Shown piece by piece: positions 38,674 through 49,426 of a stretch of 64,000 nt of DNA (position 1 is the first letter of the stretch; every line of letters starts with the position of its first letter). The translations under genes and the position numbers were made by a program. This DNA is from Myxococcota bacterium (lineage in GTDB: Bacteria > Myxococcota_A > UBA9160 > PR03). The stretch spans positions 32,001 through 96,000 of the forward strand of contig JBFIML010000005.1 of the NCBI GenBank assembly GCA_041611735.1, in the 5' to 3' direction. The notes under the pieces are model-generated. The model was not told the origin of the DNA, did not search any database, and was given only the letters and a program-made list of their open reading frames with translations.

Positions 38674-39375
38674 GTGCTCCGGATCGACGTCATCACGATC
38701 TTTCCGGAGCTCTTCGAGCCGTTCCTCTCGCTCTCCACCGTGGGGATTGCCCGACGCGAAGGCCTCCTGGAGGTGGCGGTGCACGACCTGCGCGCTTGGA
38801 CGAAGGATCGCCACCGCAGCGTGGACGATGCGCCCTACGGCGGCGGACCGGGGATGGTGATGAAGCCGGAACCCCTGGTGGCGGCGGTCGAGACGGTGGC
38901 GGGCCCCAAAGGTGCCGGCCGGGAGTCCCACGTGGTACTCCTCTCGCCCCAGGGGCGTCGCCTGGACCAGGGACGGGTGGCCGAGCTGGGGCGCAAGCGC
39001 CGCCTCGCGCTGGTGTGCGGGCGCTACGAGGGCGTGGACCAGCGCGCGATCGATCTGGCCATCGACGAGGAGGTCTCGATCGGGGACTACGTGCTCTCGG
39101 GCGGCGAGGTGCCGGCCATGGTGATGATCGAGGCGGTGGCGCGTCTCGTGCCCGGCGTGCTCGGCAACCCGGAGTCCATGCACCAGGAGTCCTTCGAGAA
39201 TGGGCTGCTCGAAGGCCCCCAGTACACGCGCCCGGCCGTGTTCCGGGGCCTGGCCGTGCCCGAGGTGCTGCGCTCCGGCGACCACCAGGCCATCGCGCGC
39301 TGGCGGGCCGCCCGCGCCCAGGAGATCACGCAACGGCGCCGCCCCGACCTGGCGGCGGGAGAGGACGAGCGATGA
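38674..39375 (+). CDS. trmD: tRNA (guanine-N1)-methyltransferase
   Basis: [46 protein letters not shown]. Confidence 0.98.
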
Positions 39376-39812
39376 ATCCGCTGGACGGGATCGAGAAGGC
39401 GTCTCTGCGCCGGGATCTGCCTCCCTTCCGACCGGGAGACACCCTGCGCGTCCACGTGAAGGTGCGCGAGGGCGACAAGGAACGCATCCAGGTGTTCGAG
39501 GGTGTCGTGCTGCGGCGACGCGGGCAGGGCGCCTCGGAGACCTTCACGGTCCGCAAGGTCTCCTACGGTGTGGGCGTGGAGCGCATCTTCCCGGTCCAGG
39601 CTCCCAGCGTGGACAAGGTGGAGATCAAGAGCCGGGGCCACGTCCGCCGCTCGCGGCTCTACTACCTGCGCGAGCTGCGCGGCAAGAAGGCGCGGCTGCG
39701 CTCCAAGGTGCGCGACCTCTCGCATCTGCTCTCGCCGGAGGAGGCCGAGCAGGCCGAGGCGGGGACGGCGGCAGAGATGCTCGCCGAGGACGAGGCGAAG
39801 CCCGACGAATAG
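39372..39812 (+). CDS. rplS: 50S ribosomal protein L19
   Basis: [47 protein letters not shown]. Confidence 0.97.
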
Positions 39813-39819
39813 CCCCGTG

Positions 39820-40191
39820 CTAGTCGCCGGCGTCGAAGGCCCCCTCCAGGTGGTCCAGGGCCACACGGCCTCGCGCATCCACCCGGCACGTCACCACGTC
39901 GAAACGCACGCGCGGCCCGACGCCCCGGTGGGCCGCCAGCCACGCCGCTGCACCGCGGACCAGGCGCGCCCGCTTGCGGGCGTCCACCGCTTCCTCGGGA
40001 GGCCCGAGTCGGTGCGAGCGGCGGGTTTTCACCTCTACGAAGGCCACCAGCCCCGGCCGCGTCGCCACCAGATCGATCTCGACGCCTCCCGCGCGCACGT
40101 TGCGCGCCACGATGCGATACCCTCGCCTCGCAAGGAGGGCGGCGGCACGAGCTTCGCCCTCGGCGCCGAGAGCGCGACGCGGATCGCGCAG
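39820..40191 (-). CDS. yraN: YraN family protein (probable CTG start)
   Basis: LGAEGEARAA; RNVR..GVEIDLVA; FVEVKTR; RFDVV; GGAG 7 nt before an in-frame CTG. Confidence 0.88.
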   Translation of the reverse strand: MRDPRRALGAEGEARAAALLARRGYRIVARNVRAGGVEIDLVATRPGLVAFVEVKTRRSHRLGPPEEAVDARKRARLVRGAAAWLAAHRGVGPRVRFDVVTCRVDARGRVALDHLEGAFDAGD

Positions 40192-40238
40192 GTCGCATCT
40201 CCGCGGGACCGACGGGGGGAGCCTGGAGCCTAGCGCAC

Positions 40239-41075
40239 TTGGGGACCCTCCACGTCGTGGCCACGCCGATCGGCAACCTGGAGGACGTGACCTTGCGCGC
40301 GCTGCGCGTGCTCGCCGAGGCCGACACGCTGCTGGCCGAGGACACGCGGCGCACGCGCACGCTGCTGGTGCACCACGGCATCCGGGCTCGCCCGCGCTCC
40401 CTGCACGCCCACAACGAGGCCGCGCGCACGGGCGAGGTCCTGGCGGCGCTGCGGGCCGGGCAGCAGGTGGCCCTGGTGTGCGACGCTGGGACGCCGCTGG
40501 TCTCCGATCCCGGCGAGCGCCTGGTGGCGGCCGCACTGGCCGACGGGCACCGGGTGGAGCCGGTGCCCGGGGCGTCGGCGGTGCTGGCGGCCCTCGCGGT
40601 GGCCGGCTTCCGGAACACGCCTTTCACCTTCCTCGGCTTCCTGCCCCGGCGCGTCGGCGAGCGTCGCGAGCGGCTCGCGAACCTGCGCGCCCGCCCGGAG
40701 ACGCTGGTGCTCTTCGAGTCGCCGCGTCGGGTGGGGACGACGCTCCGCGAGCTGGCCGAAGCCCTCGGCGCCGGGCGGCAAGCCTGTGTGGCGCGCGAGC
40801 TCACCAAGCGGCACGAGGAGGTCGTGCGCGGTCCGCTCGCCTCCCTGGCGGAGCGCTTCGCCGACGGGGCCCGCGGCGAGGTCACCCTCGTCGTGGAGGG
40901 AGATGCCGGGTCCGCAGAGGCGACCGCCGCGCCCGAGACCGTGGACGCGCGCATCCGCGGGCTGCTGGCGGAGGGCCGCTCGCCGCGCGAGATCGCCGCC
41001 GCCCTGGCGCCGACCCTGCGGCTGCGCAAGCGCGAGGTGTACGCGCGCGCCGTGGCGGCGCGGGAGCGGCGGTGA
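40239..41075 (+). CDS. rsmI: 16S rRNA (cytidine1402-2'-O)-methyltransferase
   Basis: VATPIGNLEDVTLRA; AEDTR; DAGTPLVSDPG; FESPRR; RELTKRHEE. Confidence 0.96.
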   Translation: MGTLHVVATPIGNLEDVTLRALRVLAEADTLLAEDTRRTRTLLVHHGIRARPRSLHAHNEAARTGEVLAALRAGQQVALVCDAGTPLVSDPGERLVAAALADGHRVEPVPGASAVLAALAVAGFRNTPFTFLGFLPRRVGERRERLANLRARPETLVLFESPRRVGTTLRELAEALGAGRQACVARELTKRHEEVVRGPLASLAERFADGARGEVTLVVEGDAGSAEATAAPETVDARIRGLLAEGRSPREIAAALAPTLRLRKREVYARAVAARERR

Positions 41076-42712
41076 GCCCGCCGACCCCGGCCCGGCTGTG
41101 GCGAACCCTGCGGCGCCTGCGCGGCGACCAGGCGCGCGCCCAGCTCCGGCATCGCCTGCGGGGCGCCCCGGCGCCGCGCCCCTGGGTGGGCGAAGCGCCG
41201 GAGCTCGGCGTGCAGGCGCCCCGGGCTCCCTTCCTCCATGCCCCGCCCCACGCCCGCTACGAAGGCGAGGGCACCTTCGACCTGCTCAACCGCGAGGTGG
41301 AGTTCCGCCAGGGCATCGACTGGGACTACACGGAAGAGGGGCCGCTGTGGGCGTTCCACCTGCACCAGTTCGACTACCTTCGCGCGCCGCACCTCGATCC
41401 CCGCACGCGCACCGCCCTGCTGCTCGACTGGATCGAGCGGCACCCGCGCGGCGTCGGCTGGCTCGGGCACCCGCTCTCGCTGCGCACCATGAACTGGCTC
41501 AAGCTCCTGCTCACGCCGGGGGCGTTCGACCTGAACGAGGCGACGGGGCGCTTCCTGCGCGCGTCCCTGGGCCAGCAGCTCCAGGTGCTGGCCGCGCGCC
41601 CCGAGACCCACCTGTTGGCGAACCACTACCTCTCGAACCTGCTGGCCCTGGTCTTCGCCGGGATCGTGCTTGACGGACCCGCGGCGGAACGCTGGCGCGG
41701 CCTCCAGGCGGCGCTTCGCGTCGAGCTGGCGGAGCAGGTGCTGGCGGACGGGGCCCACTTCGAGCGCAGCCCCATGTATCACGCGCTGCTCCTGGAGGCG
41801 GTGCTCGACCTGGCCAACGTGGCCGCCGCCTCGGCGCGGACGCCGGAGGGGCTCGAGGAGACGCTGCGCGAGACCGCCGCGCGCATGCTCGGGGCCCTGC
41901 GGGTGTGGACCCACCCGGACGGTCGCATCGCGCTGTTCGGGGACTCTGCCTTGGGCATCGCCCAGGAGCCCGCCACCCTGGAGCGCTACGCGGCCGCCCT
42001 CGGCATCGCGGTCAAGGAGCCGGCCCGGGACGGGCTGCTGGAGCGGGCGCGCTTCGTGCGGCTGGCGGCCGGGCCCTTCCACGCCATCGCGACCTTCGGG
42101 GACCCGTCGCCCGACTACCAGCCCGGTCACTCCCACGCCGACGCGCTCTCCTTCGAGCTCTCCCTGGGGAGCCAGCGGGTCGTAACCGACACCGGGGTCG
42201 CCGAGTACGTGCGGGGCGCCTACCGGGAGGCGAGCCGCGCCACCCGCTCCCACGCCACCCTGGAGATCGACGGCCGGGACCAGGCCGAGTGCTGGCACTC
42301 CTTCCGCGTCGGCGGCCGCCCCCGGGTCGAGCTGCTGCACGCGGAGCCGGACCGCGTGGCCGAGGGCACCTGCGCCAGCTGGGCCACCCCCCAGGTGGTG
42401 CACCGGCGCCGCTTCCGGGTGGACGAGCGCACCCTGCAGATCCTCGACGCGGTGGAGGGGCGACCGCATCGGGTGCGACTCACCCTGCCGCTCGCGCCGG
42501 GCCTGGAGCCCGAGCTCTCGGCCGAGGTGGCGCGCCTGCGCCTGCCCGAAGGGCGTCGGCTTGAGATCGCGCTTCCTCGCGGCGTGGGCTGGCGGGTGGA
42601 GCGCCGGCTCTACTTTCCGGAGTTCGGCCGGGTGGTGGAGCGCGCCGCCCTCGTGGGGGAGGGCGCGCGCCTTCCCTCCAGCACGTGGCTGTTCCGCTTC
42701 GCGAGCAGCTAG
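41072..42712 (+). CDS. Heparinase II/III family protein
   Basis: LWAFHLHQFDY; HLLANHY; DGAHFERSPMYH; PGHSHADALSFELS; RATRSHATL. Confidence 0.88.
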   Translation: MSPPTPARLWRTLRRLRGDQARAQLRHRLRGAPAPRPWVGEAPELGVQAPRAPFLHAPPHARYEGEGTFDLLNREVEFRQGIDWDYTEEGPLWAFHLHQFDYLRAPHLDPRTRTALLLDWIERHPRGVGWLGHPLSLRTMNWLKLLLTPGAFDLNEATGRFLRASLGQQLQVLAARPETHLLANHYLSNLLALVFAGIVLDGPAAERWRGLQAALRVELAEQVLADGAHFERSPMYHALLLEAVLDLANVAAASARTPEGLEETLRETAARMLGALRVWTHPDGRIALFGDSALGIAQEPATLERYAAALGIAVKEPARDGLLERARFVRLAAGPFHAIATFGDPSPDYQPGHSHADALSFELSLGSQRVVTDTGVAEYVRGAYREASRATRSHATLEIDGRDQAECWHSFRVGGRPRVELLHAEPDRVAEGTCASWATPQVVHRRRFRVDERTLQILDAVEGRPHRVRLTLPLAPGLEPELSAEVARLRLPEGRRLEIALPRGVGWRVERRLYFPEFGRVVERAALVGEGARLPSSTWLFRFASS

Positions 42713-42726
42713 GCCGCCGGGGTGCC

Positions 42727-43344
42727 TCAGGGATGGATCGTGACGGGGGTGCCCGGGGCGACGCGCCCGGCCAGCAGTTCGATCTCGTCGTCGGTCATGG
42801 CGATGCAGCCCGTGGTCCAGTCCAGGTGCGAGGAGTCGCCGCGCCAGCGCGCGCCCTCGCCGTGGAAGCCGAGACCGCTCCCGAGCGGGGTGTCGGCGGG
42901 AGGCGGGAAGCCCGCCTCGTGGGCGCGCAGGATGCGCCGGTGCTGCGCGGCGTCGATGAGCCCCTCGGCCAGGCCGGCGTCGGCGTCCGCGGGCGAGGGA
43001 TAGTCGATGGGGAGGAAGCGGTGGAAGCGGCTCGGCCGCGCGGGTCCCGTGACGTGGTAGCTGCCCTCCGGCGTACGCAGGTCGCCGGCGTGGCGCTTGG
43101 GGCCGACCGGGTCGCGTCCCAGGGCGACCCGCAGCGTCACCTCGGCGCCCCCTTCGCACTCGGCCACCAGCCGGCGCTCGGACTTGAAGACCTGGATCGC
43201 GACGATGCGTTCGCAGGGTGGCTGCGGCCGCGCCGCAGGCAGCGGCTCCGGCGCCGGGGCGGGGAGGGGCTCCGGTGGGGCCGGGGCAGGCGGCCGGGCG
43301 GGGACGGCGCAGGCCAGGGCGAGAAGGCCCGCCAGGAGCGCCAT
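42727..43344 (-). CDS. YkuD-family lipoprotein, YafK/DpaA-like
   Basis: Lipobox LALAC; Pro-rich linker; KRHAGDLRTPEGSY; IDYP; FHG...DWTTGCIAM. Confidence 0.85.
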   Translation of the reverse strand: MALLAGLLALACAVPARPPAPAPPEPLPAPAPEPLPAARPQPPCERIVAIQVFKSERRLVAECEGGAEVTLRVALGRDPVGPKRHAGDLRTPEGSYHVTGPARPSRFHRFLPIDYPSPADADAGLAEGLIDAAQHRRILRAHEAGFPPPADTPLGSGLGFHGEGARWRGDSSHLDWTTGCIAMTDDEIELLAGRVAPGTPVTIHP

Positions 43345-44268
43345 GGCGGCCCCGGCACGGGCGCCGGGCTCCTGCTCGCCCTGGCCCTCGGGCTCGCTCC
43401 CGCGCCGCCGGTCCGGGCGGAGGACGCCCCTGCGCCCCTGCGCCCGCTGGTGGGCCGGGAGTCCACCGACCTGATCCAGCCCGACGACACGCTCCTCGAC
43501 GTGGCCTTCCGTCACCGCCTGGGCTTCGAGGCCGTCGAACGCCTGAACCCCCACGTGGACGTCTGGATCCCCGACCCCGGCACGGTCGTGCGTCTGCCGA
43601 CGCGCACGATGCCTCCGGAAGCCGAACCCGAGGGCCTCGTCCTGAACGTGCCGGAAATGCGCCTCTACGACTTCACGGTGGACCCGGCCCCCGAGATCTT
43701 CGCGGTGGCGGTGGGCGATGCGGAAGACCCGACTCCGATCGGCAACTTCCGCATCGGCACCAAGCGCATCGACCCGGTTTGGAACGTGCCCGAGTCGATC
43801 CGTCTCGAAAAGCCGCATCTTCCCCCGCTCGTTCCACCGGGGCCCGACAATCCCCTGGGCGACCGCTGGATGACGATCGGGAGCAGCTCCTACGGCATCC
43901 ACGGCACGAACATCCGCTGGTCGATCGGGCACACGGCCACCCACGGCTGCGTGCGTCTCTACGCCGACGAGATGCGCCGTCTCTTCGAGCGCGTGCCCAG
44001 CGGCACCCGGCTCCAGAGCGTCTACCAGCCCGTCAAGTGGGGCCGCGACGGCCAGCGCATCTACCTCGAGGTGCACCGCGACCTCTACGGGCGCGAGCCC
44101 GACCTGCTGGCGGCGGCCCTGCGGCGCCCCGCGGAGCTCGGGATCCTGGAGCGGCTGGACGTTCCACTCGTGGAGCGGGTCGTCGCCGAGGCGCGCGGCA
44201 TCCCGGTCCCGGTCGGCACGCTGCCCCCCGACGCGAGCGGCCCGCCTACTTCCGGATCCCCTTTCTGA
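43343..44268 (+). CDS. L,D-transpeptidase, ErfK/YcfS-like with LysM-like N-domain (apparent -1 indel near 43350)
   Basis: SD AGGAG + ATG 43343 out of frame by 1; signal LLLALALG; DTLLDVA..NPHVDVWIP; GPDNPLG; YGIHGTN..SIG..THGCVRL. Confidence 0.88.
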
Positions 44269-44548
44269 AGATCGCGTCCGCCTTGCGCGCCGATTCCTCG
44301 GCGCTGGTGGCCGCGGCACGCGCCTGCGCCTCGGCCTCCTCGGCCCGGCGCACGGCCTGCTCGGCGGTCTGCTGGGCGGCGGCGGCGCGCTCGTCGGCCG
44401 CCTGGGCGCGCCGATCGGCAGCCCGGGCCGCCTCCTCCACGGCGCCCACGCGCCCCTCCAGGTCGTCCACCCGGCCGCTCGTCGCGCAGCCCGCCAGGCC
44501 CACGCCGAGCACCAGGGCCACAGCGATTCCGAATCCACGTCCGAACAC
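44246..44548 (-). CDS. Lpp/OprI-like alanine-zipper lipoprotein
   Basis: Strong SD AAGGAGG; lipobox LAGC; Ala-rich coiled coil; C-terminus FRKGIRK with terminal Lys. Confidence 0.85.
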   Translation of the reverse strand: MFGRGFGIAVALVLGVGLAGCATSGRVDDLEGRVGAVEEAARAADRRAQAADERAAAAQQTAEQAVRRAEEAEAQARAAATSAEESARKADAIFRKGIRK

Positions 44549-44594
44549 GGTCGATCCTCCTTTTCCGTTGGTGTTGCACAGGGTCTTCCGAAAC

Positions 44595-46778
<2,184 letters not shown>

Positions 46779-46819: not shown

Positions 46820-47974
46820 GTGGGGGGGAGCGCCACCGAGCCGCGCGAGCAACAGCTCCGCGCCCTGCTGGACGCCGTCACGGATGGCCTCGTCCTGTGC
46901 GGAGGCGGCGGTCGCATCGCGTGGGCCAATCCCGCCCTGGCGACCCTGGCCGGCCTGGAGGGTCCCGAGAAGCTGGCGGGCCGGGCGCTCGCGGACCTGT
47001 TCGAGGAGGCGGATCTCGGGCTCCTCGCCCCGGCCTTTCGCGGCCCCGTGGAGTGCCACCTGGTCGTCCCTGGAAGCGGGTCGCGTCGGGTCCTGGTGGA
47101 CCGCCTGGGCCTTCCAGCCGGCGACGCCGAGGCCGCCCTCCGGGTGCGCGACGTCTCCGAGCTCTCGGCGCGCAGCGCAGAGGTCCTGCGCATGGCCCGG
47201 GCGCTCCAGCGCGCCAATCGCGAGTGCGCCGACCTGCGCGAGCGGCTGCGGCGCGACGCCGCAGCCCGGGAGCAGCTGCTCACCGTGGTGAGCCACGAGC
47301 TGCGTACGCCCGTCACCGTGATCGCGGGCTACAACCGCCTGCTGCTGGCCGGCAAGGTGGGCCCCCTCAATCCGGAGCAGGAGCACTTCGTCCAGGAGAG
47401 CCAGAAGAGCTGCCAGCGCCTCAACCAGTTCATCGGCAACCTGCTGGAGCGGGCGCGCGGCCTGATGGGGGAGGGCGTGCTGGAGCTCCACGACGCTCCC
47501 CTCGCCCCCGCGATCCAGGCGGTGGTGGGCCTGCTGACCCCGCTCCTGCGCGAGCACCGCCTGGAGGTGGGGCTCGCGCTCCCCCCCGACCTGCCACCGG
47601 CCCGCTTCGACCCCCTGCGCCTCGAGCAGGTGCTCACCAACCTGCTGGACAACGCCATCAAGTTCGCCCCGGCCGGAAGCCGGCTCGAGATCTCGGCGCG
47701 GGCCATGGAGGCGCAGGGCGAGCCGTGGCTCGAGGTGGCGGTGGCGGACCGCGGGCCGGGGGTTCCCGACGCGGACCGCGAGCGAATCTTCGAGGCCTAC
47801 GCCCAGGCCGAGGCGGGCCGGGGCGGCGGCGGCCTCGGCCTGGGTCTCGCCATCTGTCGCCGCATCGTGGAGGCCCACGGTGGTCGCATCGGCGCCGAGC
47901 CGCGTGCCGGGGGCGGGAGCCGCTTCGTCTTCACGCTCCCCGCAGCCGATGCCCGGCCGGGAGCCCGCGCCTAG
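46820..47974 (+). CDS. Cytoplasmic PAS sensor histidine kinase
   Basis: PAS-like N-terminus; SHELRTP; NLLDNAIKF; DRGPG; GLGLGLAI; no TM. Confidence 0.92.
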   Translation: MGGSATEPREQQLRALLDAVTDGLVLCGGGGRIAWANPALATLAGLEGPEKLAGRALADLFEEADLGLLAPAFRGPVECHLVVPGSGSRRVLVDRLGLPAGDAEAALRVRDVSELSARSAEVLRMARALQRANRECADLRERLRRDAAAREQLLTVVSHELRTPVTVIAGYNRLLLAGKVGPLNPEQEHFVQESQKSCQRLNQFIGNLLERARGLMGEGVLELHDAPLAPAIQAVVGLLTPLLREHRLEVGLALPPDLPPARFDPLRLEQVLTNLLDNAIKFAPAGSRLEISARAMEAQGEPWLEVAVADRGPGVPDADRERIFEAYAQAEAGRGGGGLGLGLAICRRIVEAHGGRIGAEPRAGGGSRFVFTLPAADARPGARA

Positions 47975-49426
47975 ATGGCGGCTGCCCGCCGCCGCGCTTC
48001 GAAGCCCCGGGGCCGCCCCAAGAGCAAGCGTCCGCGCGTTCTCGTGGTGGACGATGCCGAGGGCATCCGCAGCTACCTGGCCGATCTCCTCAAGCTCAAG
48101 GGCTGGCAGGTGGACACGGCCGCCGACGGCCGGCAGGCCCTGGAGCTCCTGGAGGGTGGAGCCGGCCCCGACGTGATCCTCCTGGACGTGATGATGCCCG
48201 GGATGGACGGGCTCGAGACCCTGAGCCGCCTGCGCGAGCGGGACTCGCGCACGCCGGTCGTGATGCTCTCGGTGGTCGGCAAGGCCAGCACCATCGTCCA
48301 GGCCATGCATCTCGGCGCCTCGGACTACCTGAACAAGCCCTTCGAGGAAGCCGAGCTCGACGCGGTGCTCAATCAGGTGCGCGAGCACCGGGCCCTGGAG
48401 GACGAGCGCGAGCGCCTGGTGAACGAGCTCGACGCGACCGTGGAGGGCGCCGTCTGGAAGAGCGAGCCCATGTTGCGCGTACGCGAGGTCATCGACCAGA
48501 TCGCCGAAACCGACGTGACGGTGCTGATCCAGGGCGAGAGCGGGGTCGGCAAGGAGATCGTCGCCCGCACCGTGCACCATGCCTCCTCCCGCGCAGAGCA
48601 GGCCTTCGTCAAGGTGAACTGTGCGGCGCTTCCGGAGGAGCTGCTGGAGAGCGAGCTGTTCGGCTACGAGAAGGGGGCCTTCACCGGCGCCACGGCCCGC
48701 AAACCCGGCAAGTTCGAGGTGGCGGATCGGGGCACGATCTTCCTGGACGAGATCGGGGAGATGAGCCCGGCGCTCCAGGCCAAGCTGCTCCAGGTGCTCC
48801 AGGACGCGAGCTTCTCGCGCCTCGGTGGCAACCGCGAGATCCGCGTCGACGTGCGGGTGGTGTGCGCCACGAACCGGCCCCTGGAGCAGATGGTCGCGCA
48901 GGGGACCTTCCGCGAAGACCTCTTCTATCGGCTGAACGTGGTCAACGTGGCGATCCCGCCGCTGCGGGAGCGTCGTGAGGAGATCCCGACCCTGCTGGAG
49001 ACGTTCCTGGCCCGCTATGCGGCCCGCTACCGCAAGCCCCGCCCGCGCGCCAGCGCCCAGCTGCTCGGCGCCCTGGAGCGCCATCCGTTCCCGGGCAACG
49101 TCCGCGAGCTCGAGAACATGGTCAAGCGCATCGTGGTGCTGGAGGGCGAGGACTCCATCCTGGAGGAGGTCTACGCCTACGGCCGGCACGCGACGCGCCG
49201 CGGCCCGAGTCCCTTCCAGGTCCTGCTCGAGGAGATCGAGGCCACCGCCGGCGAGATCCCCCTCAAGGAGGTGGGCCGGCGCGCCGCCCTCGAGGCGGAG
49301 CGCGAGGCGATCGAGCGCGTGCTGCACCGGACCCAGTGGAACCGCAAGAAGGCGGCGGGCCTGCTCGGGGTGAGCTACAAGACCCTGCTGCAGAAGATCC
49401 GCGAGTGCGGCCTGGAGCCGGACTAG
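47975..49426 (+). CDS. Sigma54-dependent response regulator (NtrC family)
   Basis: Receiver VVDD..LLDVMMP; GESGVGKE; GAFTGA; FPGNVRELEN; Fis HTH. Confidence 0.96.
   Translation: MAAARRRASKPRGRPKSKRPRVLVVDDAEGIRSYLADLLKLKGWQVDTAADGRQALELLEGGAGPDVILLDVMMPGMDGLETLSRLRERDSRTPVVMLSVVGKASTIVQAMHLGASDYLNKPFEEAELDAVLNQVREHRALEDERERLVNELDATVEGAVWKSEPMLRVREVIDQIAETDVTVLIQGESGVGKEIVARTVHHASSRAEQAFVKVNCAALPEELLESELFGYEKGAFTGATARKPGKFEVADRGTIFLDEIGEMSPALQAKLLQVLQDASFSRLGGNREIRVDVRVVCATNRPLEQMVAQGTFREDLFYRLNVVNVAIPPLRERREEIPTLLETFLARYAARYRKPRPRASAQLLGALERHPFPGNVRELENMVKRIVVLEGEDSILEEVYAYGRHATRRGPSPFQVLLEEIEATAGEIPLKEVGRRAALEAEREAIERVLHRTQWNRKKAAGLLGVSYKTLLQKIRECGLEPD

Follow-up and report, generated by a model that had tools for sequence, protein, structure and literature searches.

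In Escherichia coli, the outer membrane lipoprotein Lpp is anchored to peptidoglycan by the L,D-transpeptidases (Ldts) LdtA, LdtB and LdtC and is released by DpaA (accessible text of PMC8263019). In Pseudomonas aeruginosa, LdtPae2 anchors the lipoprotein OprI, whose release is presumed to be the task of LdtPae3, a YafK-like enzyme carrying a GChA motif (accessible text of PMC10434034). Two surveys, by Witwinowski et al. (bioRxiv 10.1101/2021.05.31.446380) and Winkle et al. (PMC8263019), define Lpp by the family PF04728 alone and, in their accessible portions, limit it to a subclade of Gammaproteobacteria and describe the DpaA-like enzymes of Deltaproteobacteria as occurring 'without Lpp'. The present work concerns a three-gene module found at positions 42727-44548 of a stretch of 64,000 nucleotides (hereafter the window) from the genome of an uncultured member of the Myxococcota. 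This module encodes a lipoprotein, an Ldt and a second protein of the YkuD family, and it is probably (about 0.75 by our estimate) a covalent outer membrane-peptidoglycan tether of the Braun/OprI kind that comes with its own anchoring and release enzymes. The evidence consists of profile hidden Markov model (HMM) families, sequence motifs, conservation of a C-terminal Lys, gene linkage, co-occurrence among genomes and a predicted trimer.

A sequence-only reading of the window had proposed such a set of genes, and all the elements that it named are present, at exactly the positions that it gave. They correspond to three real genes within DNA of 73% G+C, and the three family assignments are upheld by domain and motif. 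The features of the module are as follows:

42727-43344, minus strand: DpaA/YafK-like YkuD protein, probable lipoprotein (PF03734, TTGCIA motif, similarity to DpaA)
about 43345-44268, plus strand: Ldt of the ErfK/YbiS/YcfS/YnhG type (PF03734, THGCVR motif; LysM-like region in the N-terminal part)
44246-44548, minus strand: alanine-zipper lipoprotein of the Lpp/OprI family (PF11839, NF040598)
44556-44560, minus strand: Shine-Dalgarno sequence GGAGG, read from the sequence, 7 nt ahead of the GTG at which the lipoprotein gene starts
44246-44268, no strand: 23 bp over which the Ldt and lipoprotein genes overlap, at their convergent 3' ends, from the coordinates of the open reading frames (ORFs)

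In the loci of relatives, too, the convergent Ldt and lipoprotein genes end close together or overlap.

The lipoprotein is 100 residues long, begins at a GTG codon behind a strong Shine-Dalgarno sequence and displays the LAGC lipobox, the Ala-zipper and the FRKGIRK end attributed to it. The lipobox places the lipidated residue at Cys21 and leaves a mature part of 80 residues whose C-terminus is AIFRKGIRK; as read from the sequence, the heptad a/d positions 41, 44, 48, 51 and so on to 83 are Ala throughout. The protein matches PF11839 (Alanine_zipper; 32.7 bits for a cut-off of 23.1) over positions 3-69 of the 69 of the model, including the last one, and the NCBIfam model NF040598, 'Lpp/OprI family alanine-zipper lipoprotein' (45.7 bits for a cut-off of 43), over positions 6-90 of 90. 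The HMM comparisons proposed in the sequence-only reading come out positive for Alanine_zipper and for YkuD and negative for LPP, since PF04728 (the LPP leucine zipper of E. coli type) gave no match at E <= 1 in the Pfam scan of the lipoprotein. Only a profile-profile comparison ties the lipoprotein to E. coli Lpp: hhalign aligned the family with the Lpp precursor with a probability of 95.7% (E 8.8e-9), a signal to which the signal peptide and the lipobox contribute in part. The exact lipoprotein sequence of the window is absent from the protein collection in which it was looked up. A word-index search for homologues returned only 5 matches, which was attributed to the low complexity of the sequence; HMM scans of genomes gave many more.

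Spurious ORFs are common in DNA of high G+C content, coiled-coil profiles match unrelated coiled coils and five weak matches to the family, detailed below, look spurious. The lipoprotein could thus be imagined to be no real gene product and to match the family by chance, as an ORF rich in Ala and of low complexity in DNA of 73% G+C. Yet it has a strong Shine-Dalgarno sequence and a correctly placed lipobox, and it passes two curated cut-offs. Furthermore, in 18 aligned sequences, C21, F94, K96 and K100 are invariant and the indels are of 7 or 14 residues, i.e. multiples of seven, and synteny is kept in the relatives. A chance match is vanishingly improbable and, judging from this conservation pattern, already refuted.

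The Ldt carries a YkuD domain (PF03734, 69.4 bits), and its THGCVR motif fits the pattern (S/T)xGCh(R/N) which, in the available parts of PMC10434034 and PMC8263019, is given for transpeptidases, GChA being given for DpaA-type hydrolases. It shares 36, 36, 30 and 31% identity with E. coli LdtB, LdtA, LdtC and LdtE, respectively (E 1e-34 to 9e-38, over residues 35 to about 250-305), and clusters with the family of LdtA, B, C and E, not with LdtD. Its best solved relatives are PDB 9tyw (E 1.3e-43, residues 28-292) and 4lzh (E 3.9e-36). Its description as an ErfK/YcfS-type Ldt therefore holds.

The protein encoded on the other side of the Ldt gene had been described as a YkuD lipoprotein of the YafK/DpaA type, which agrees with its PF03734 match (65.8 bits), its TTGCIA motif and its LALAC lipobox. 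The motif has an Ala where transpeptidases carry an Arg, two positions after the catalytic Cys. DpaA-type YkuD proteins lack this Arg and have Ala or Asn in its place, according to the accessible text of PMC8263019 and PMC10434034. DpaA is also the best E. coli match of the protein (27% identity over 171 residues, E 2.3e-11, residues 48-205), the next one being LdtC (2.3e-5). Among solved structures, PDB 8ikr is matched at E 2.8e-4, and a GC(I/V/Y)A(M/V/L)T motif is common to the YafK-like protein, the 8ikr chain and the linked copies of relatives. The N-terminus consists of MALLAGLLALAC, followed by 31 Pro/Ala-rich residues and then by a conserved Cys, and this pattern of a lipobox plus a Pro-rich linker is kept in the relatives. 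Linker length and tether length showed no significant correlation in these relatives, which are not independent of one another (Spearman rho 0.38, p 0.12, n=18 of 39 loci examined); the other loci were left out of the comparison when one of the two features went undetected by the regular expressions.

Conservation of the linkage in relatives, which had been suggested as a check, was found: all 20 loci of one set have the Ldt gene next to the lipoprotein gene, and 17 of them also have a YafK-like gene in the 1.5-kb flank. In a second, partly overlapping set of 38 loci, drawn from named genome records and in some cases cut by contig ends, the Ldt gene is adjacent in 37 and the YafK-like gene in 28. 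Three architectures were encountered. The type 1 order, that of the window, is yafK<- ldt-> <-lpp; the type 2 order is co-directional, lpp-> yafK-> ldt-> (L066-L074); the type 3 order is yafK-> lpp-> <-ldt (L075-L077 and L079) and is carried by near-complete genomes of 4.1-4.8 Mb in a genus-level group (g61). Several genomes (G027, G031, G069, G080, G117, G232 and G237) harbour two modules.

The coupling between the genes extends to their distribution in the phylum, examined in an evenly drawn sample of 251 genomes. NF040598 scores over its cut-off in 26 of these, and one genome with a score of 40.1 bits (G003) was counted as the 27th. A relative of the window-type Ldt (E <= 1e-20) is encoded by all 27 lipoprotein genomes and by none of the 224 others. 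The five further weak lipoprotein matches mentioned above (E 1e-5 to 1e-8) come without such an Ldt. YafK-like proteins (E <= 1e-10) occur in 66 of the 251 genomes, that is in 26 of the 27 lipoprotein genomes and in 40 others, and the copies of at least 50% identity are found only in lipoprotein genomes, beside the lipoprotein gene. The occurrences are concentrated in the uncultured order of the window and in one other genus. As relatives are not independent, these counts describe a pattern and do not amount to a statistical test.

The sequence-only reading had made its proposal depend on conservation of the terminal Lys. Among 38 distinct relatives, this Lys is terminal in 34 and present in all. 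These family members come from 59 loci (L001-L059) and were found by regular expression; six loci gave no detected lipoprotein, and three false positives of the regular expression (L007, L013 and L020; non-coil ORFs of 47 and 52 residues) were set aside. Ten out of ten further Myxococcota lipoproteins, from nine type 2 modules and one type 1 locus (L078, ending in EKSVEK), also end in Lys. The nine type 2 paralogues end in IFQRSLxK or similar; K96 is replaced by Arg in eight of them and the terminal Lys is kept in all nine, and it thus stands out as the residue under constraint. The four type 3 lipoproteins, 72 or 79 residues long, are likewise Lys-ended.

The comparison of a mature tether of about 80 residues with the 58 of E. 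coli Lpp was borne out as far as the lengths are concerned. In the 38 distinct relatives, the mature part measures 66 (n=12), 69 (n=3), 73 (n=15) or 80 residues (n=5), or else 53, 94 or 97 (one each), so that most lengths, counted as 29 of the 38, belong to a heptad series of 66, 73, 80 and 94, a regularity that also argues against a chance match. The 80 residues of the window copy lie at the long end of this series and do not characterize the clade; 66 and 73 are commoner. That a longer tether goes with a wider periplasm is speculation.

Modelling of a trimer had been suggested as a check. For three copies of residues 22-100, a trimer of parallel chains in register is predicted. The prediction reached an ipSAE of 0.74, compared with 0.02 for the best control, with a pLDDT of at least 85 and runs agreeing in at least 94% of contacts. 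The predicted contacts (27-27, 30-30, 34-34, 37-37, 41-41 and 44-44) are those of parallel chains in register, and the predicted interface runs over residues 23-94, at the a/d positions. Of the proteins of known structure, 20 out of 30 that were solved as pairs attain the mark used for scoring, as does 1 out of 23 single chains. As Lpp trimers have solved structures, this result may reflect memory of these structures, and it indicates likeness to them. With the rise of a coiled coil, about 0.15 nm per residue, residues 23-94 would give a predicted rod of about 10-11 nm; the rod of E. coli Lpp measures about 8 nm.

Several results weigh against the tether interpretation. Compared with PDB, the profile of the lipoprotein family matches Lpp entries at E about 1e-3, no better than unrelated coiled coils such as tropomyosin. 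Four of the 38 relatives end in SKGGR or SKKGR, i.e. with GGR or KGR after the conserved Lys, and a strictly terminal Lys is therefore not universal. The Ldt scores about 120 bits on NF007563, NF007612 and NF047955, below their equivalog cut-offs of 480-583, and its gene has no canonical start codon ahead of the signal peptide. Furthermore, in a tree of 32 rows (27 lipoprotein-linked Ldts, four E. coli enzymes and that of the window; LdtD and DpaA diverge too much for full-length alignment and were omitted), E. coli LdtA, B, C and E form one clade (100/100), so that orthology cannot separate anchoring from cross-linking enzymes. The accessible text of PMC10434034 likewise states that phylogeny cannot tell them apart. 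Lastly, the E. coli Ldt gene convergent to lpp, 63 bp away from it, is that of LdtE, a presumed 3-3 cross-linker (accessible text of PMC8263019), and adjacency alone is thus no proof of anchoring.

The four lipoproteins with a tail after the Lys belong to loci L040, L044, L056 and L058; an adjacent YafK-like gene was seen in none of these four loci.

The results on phylogeny and on the lpp/ldtE pair would suit another explanation, in which the coiled-coil lipoprotein stays free in the outer membrane, with no covalent bond to the wall, the Ldt next to it is an ordinary 3-3 cross-linker and their adjacency is inherited gene order. This we regard as very unlikely. A general cross-linker is not expected to track the lipoprotein as exactly as the Ldt does in the phylum sample, and neither the survival of the linkage through three rearranged architectures nor the conserved C-terminal Lys would be explained. 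In addition, cross-linking could be performed by a separate enzyme. The host genome has only three YkuD loci, two in the module and one elsewhere (G000:C6:90754-91290; 555-1091 of L080), and the latter encodes a small, secreted, single-domain protein of 178 residues with the motif SLGCVR, which is a candidate 3-3 cross-linker. The anchoring reaction itself appears feasible in the phylum, since Myxococcus xanthus, in which Lpp-like proteins are said to be missing, acts as though able to cross-link E. coli Lpp, in a manner dependent on the terminal Lys (accessible text of bioRxiv 10.1101/2025.05.15.654258).

In the Ldt gene, an in-frame signal peptide, (G)LLLALALGLAPAPPVRA, is encoded, and no ATG, GTG or TTG precedes it in the Ldt frame. 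The first such codon, GTG 43450, would remove the signal peptide if used as the start. Non-canonical codons are present in frame at 43357 (ACG), 43372 and 43381 (both CTG). The palindrome CCATGG at 43341-43346 holds the ATG of the YafK-like gene together with an ATG that is out of frame with the Ldt; as the YafK-like gene starts at this palindrome, the spacer between the two head-to-head genes is reduced to zero. A frameshift due to an assembly error, which would account for an ATG lying one frame off at 43343, was considered and rejected, because a contig from a different study is identical over 42700-43608 (0 differences, 0 gaps). Canonical starts are also missing in relatives, for the Ldt in L045, L050, L059 and L044 and for the YafK-like protein in L033, L036, L049, L022 and L046; their assemblies look, by the contig names, like short-read ones. 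Moreover, close to the N-terminal region, a single in-frame stop (TAG or TGA) interrupts the Ldt matches of L022, G027, G080, G232 and G237, which could be explained by pseudogenes, assembly errors or misjudged starts.

The role of the YafK-like protein as a release enzyme has to be weighed separately. On NF040599 (LdtF_DpaA_YafK), it scores 29.7 bits for a cut-off of 365, with only residues 48-125 aligned, and its homologues in the 40 genomes that lack the lipoprotein imply that the family has other substrates too. In addition, 10 of the 38 lipoprotein loci have no adjacent YafK-like gene, some of them being cut by contig ends. An alternative therefore keeps the tether and its Ldt as proposed and makes the YafK-like protein a stem peptide-trimming L,D-carboxypeptidase or endopeptidase similar to Csd6 or Pgp2, or an amidase acting on other wall-bound proteins. 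We consider it unlikely: the DpaA match spans the whole domain, the GC(I/V/Y)A(M/V/L)T motif is common to the 8ikr chain and the linked copies, and the copies of at least 50% identity are confined to lipoprotein genomes, where they lie beside the lipoprotein gene. Furthermore, the gene takes part in all three architectures, including a position within the operon-like lpp-yafK-ldt arrangement.

If the module encodes a tether with both enzymes, as we favour, the 80-residue lipoprotein would be lipidated at Cys21, sorted to the outer membrane and seated in its inner leaflet, and would form a parallel three-stranded alanine-zipper rod, whose invariant C-terminal Lys would reach the cell wall. The periplasmic Ldt would take a tetrapeptide stem as acyl donor and join the carbonyl of meso-diaminopimelate to the epsilon-amino group of this Lys. 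The YafK-like protein, anchored by its lipid and extended by its 31-residue Pro-rich linker, would hydrolyse the same amide and would in this way set the amount of bound tether.

The mechanism is known, and what is added here is its distribution in Myxococcota. A tether of the Lpp/OprI family, probably native together with its enzymes to part of this phylum, would correct the published distribution of such lipoproteins and would give the 'orphan' DpaA-like enzymes a possible substrate. The system is compact, with three genes, and testable in E. coli lpp/ldt mutants. Tether lengths that vary naturally by heptads also bear on what sets the width of the periplasm. Such proteins are already named by automatic annotation, as NF040598 is passed and IMG labels one relative (P0001) 'outer membrane murein-binding lipoprotein Lpp'. 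No paper on OprI-family tethers in Myxococcota or Desulfobacterota was found in a literature search that was thin on subscription journals.

The host is a Myxococcota, as had been supposed, and not a gammaproteobacterium. It is represented by a metagenome-assembled genome (MAG) of 4.09 Mb in 118 contigs, 95% complete, in which the window belongs to contig 5, and the nearest loci come from MAGs labelled Myxococcota, 'Deltaproteobacteria bacterium' or Myxococcales. Five wall-binding domains of the OmpA/Pal type are also encoded in this genome. Upstream of the lipoprotein gene, at a distance of 46 nt, lies ligA (44595-46607, identified by Pfam scan), which is not a neighbour of the lipoprotein gene in the relatives. 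The surrounding regions (38674-42712 and 46820-49426) encode what look, from their translations, like housekeeping functions: besides LigA, we take these to be TrmD, RplS, a YraN-like protein, RsmI, a heparinase II/III-like protein and a histidine kinase with a response regulator of the sigma-54 type. A scan of 42500-44800 returned no promoter-like and no terminator-like site, with a consensus unsuited to such a G+C content.

Covalent tethers between the outer membrane and the wall that are made by Ldts are also described outside Enterobacterales, for beta-barrel outer membrane proteins of Alphaproteobacteria and for LimB of Coxiella. These unrelated proteins are attached by an N-terminal Gly or Ala or by an internal Lys, whereas the window encodes a rod of the Lpp/OprI family with a C-terminal Lys (accessible text of PMC8263019 for both examples).

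The module is closer to the Lpp system of E. coli, which likewise has a lipoprotein trimer with a C-terminal Lys, related Ldts and, in DpaA, the nearest E. coli counterpart of the YafK-like protein. In E. coli K-12 (L060, 1757421-1758725), lpp and ldtE are convergent like their counterparts in the window, and this pair may be the remnant of an ancestral one. The E. coli system differs by the Leu/Val/Ile core of its lipoprotein instead of an Ala core, by 58 mature residues instead of 80 and by the location of dpaA elsewhere on the chromosome. Unlike the YafK-like protein of the window, E. coli DpaA has no standard lipobox at its N-terminus.

Three loci from Desulfobacterales, Thermodesulfobacteriota and Syntrophus (L041, L048 and L057) also combine a Lys-ended alanine-zipper lipoprotein with an adjacent ErfK-type Ldt, a YafK-like gene being present or absent in loci of this kind. 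They differ by a co-directional order, ldt-> lpp->, and by longer lipoproteins, of 94 (L057) and 97 residues (L048). In the tree, their Ldts are sister to the type 1 Ldts of Myxococcota (100/98). As a tentative scenario, to which we give somewhat less than an even chance, the Braun-type tether would be an old three-gene cassette distributed across Myxococcota, Desulfobacterota and Pseudomonadota and not a recent gammaproteobacterial invention. The E. coli lpp/ldtE pair would then be what is left of it, heptad-step lengths (66, 73, 80 and up to 94-97) would tune the spacing of the envelope in each lineage, and the release enzyme, held at the outer membrane on its Pro-rich leash, would reach the bound end of the rod.

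The closest parallel is with P. aeruginosa, where OprI belongs to the same PF11839/NF040598 family and ends in Lys, and where an anchoring Ldt of the ErfK lineage and a YkuD paralogue with a GChA motif are also present. OprI has a length of 64, to which the 66 residues that are frequent among the relatives come close, and it ends in ...SRK, compared with AIF(R/K)K-x-x-x-K here. In Pseudomonas, oprI lies next to its Ldt gene. The P. aeruginosa genes carry three separate locus tags (accessible text of PMC10434034), whereas those of the Myxococcota window form one cluster. The window copy further differs by its 80 residues, by its occurrence in another phylum and by a YafK-like enzyme that is itself a probable lipoprotein with a Pro-rich linker. 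As a working system, by analogy, the module most likely resembles the OprI/LdtPae2/LdtPae3 set of Pseudomonas.

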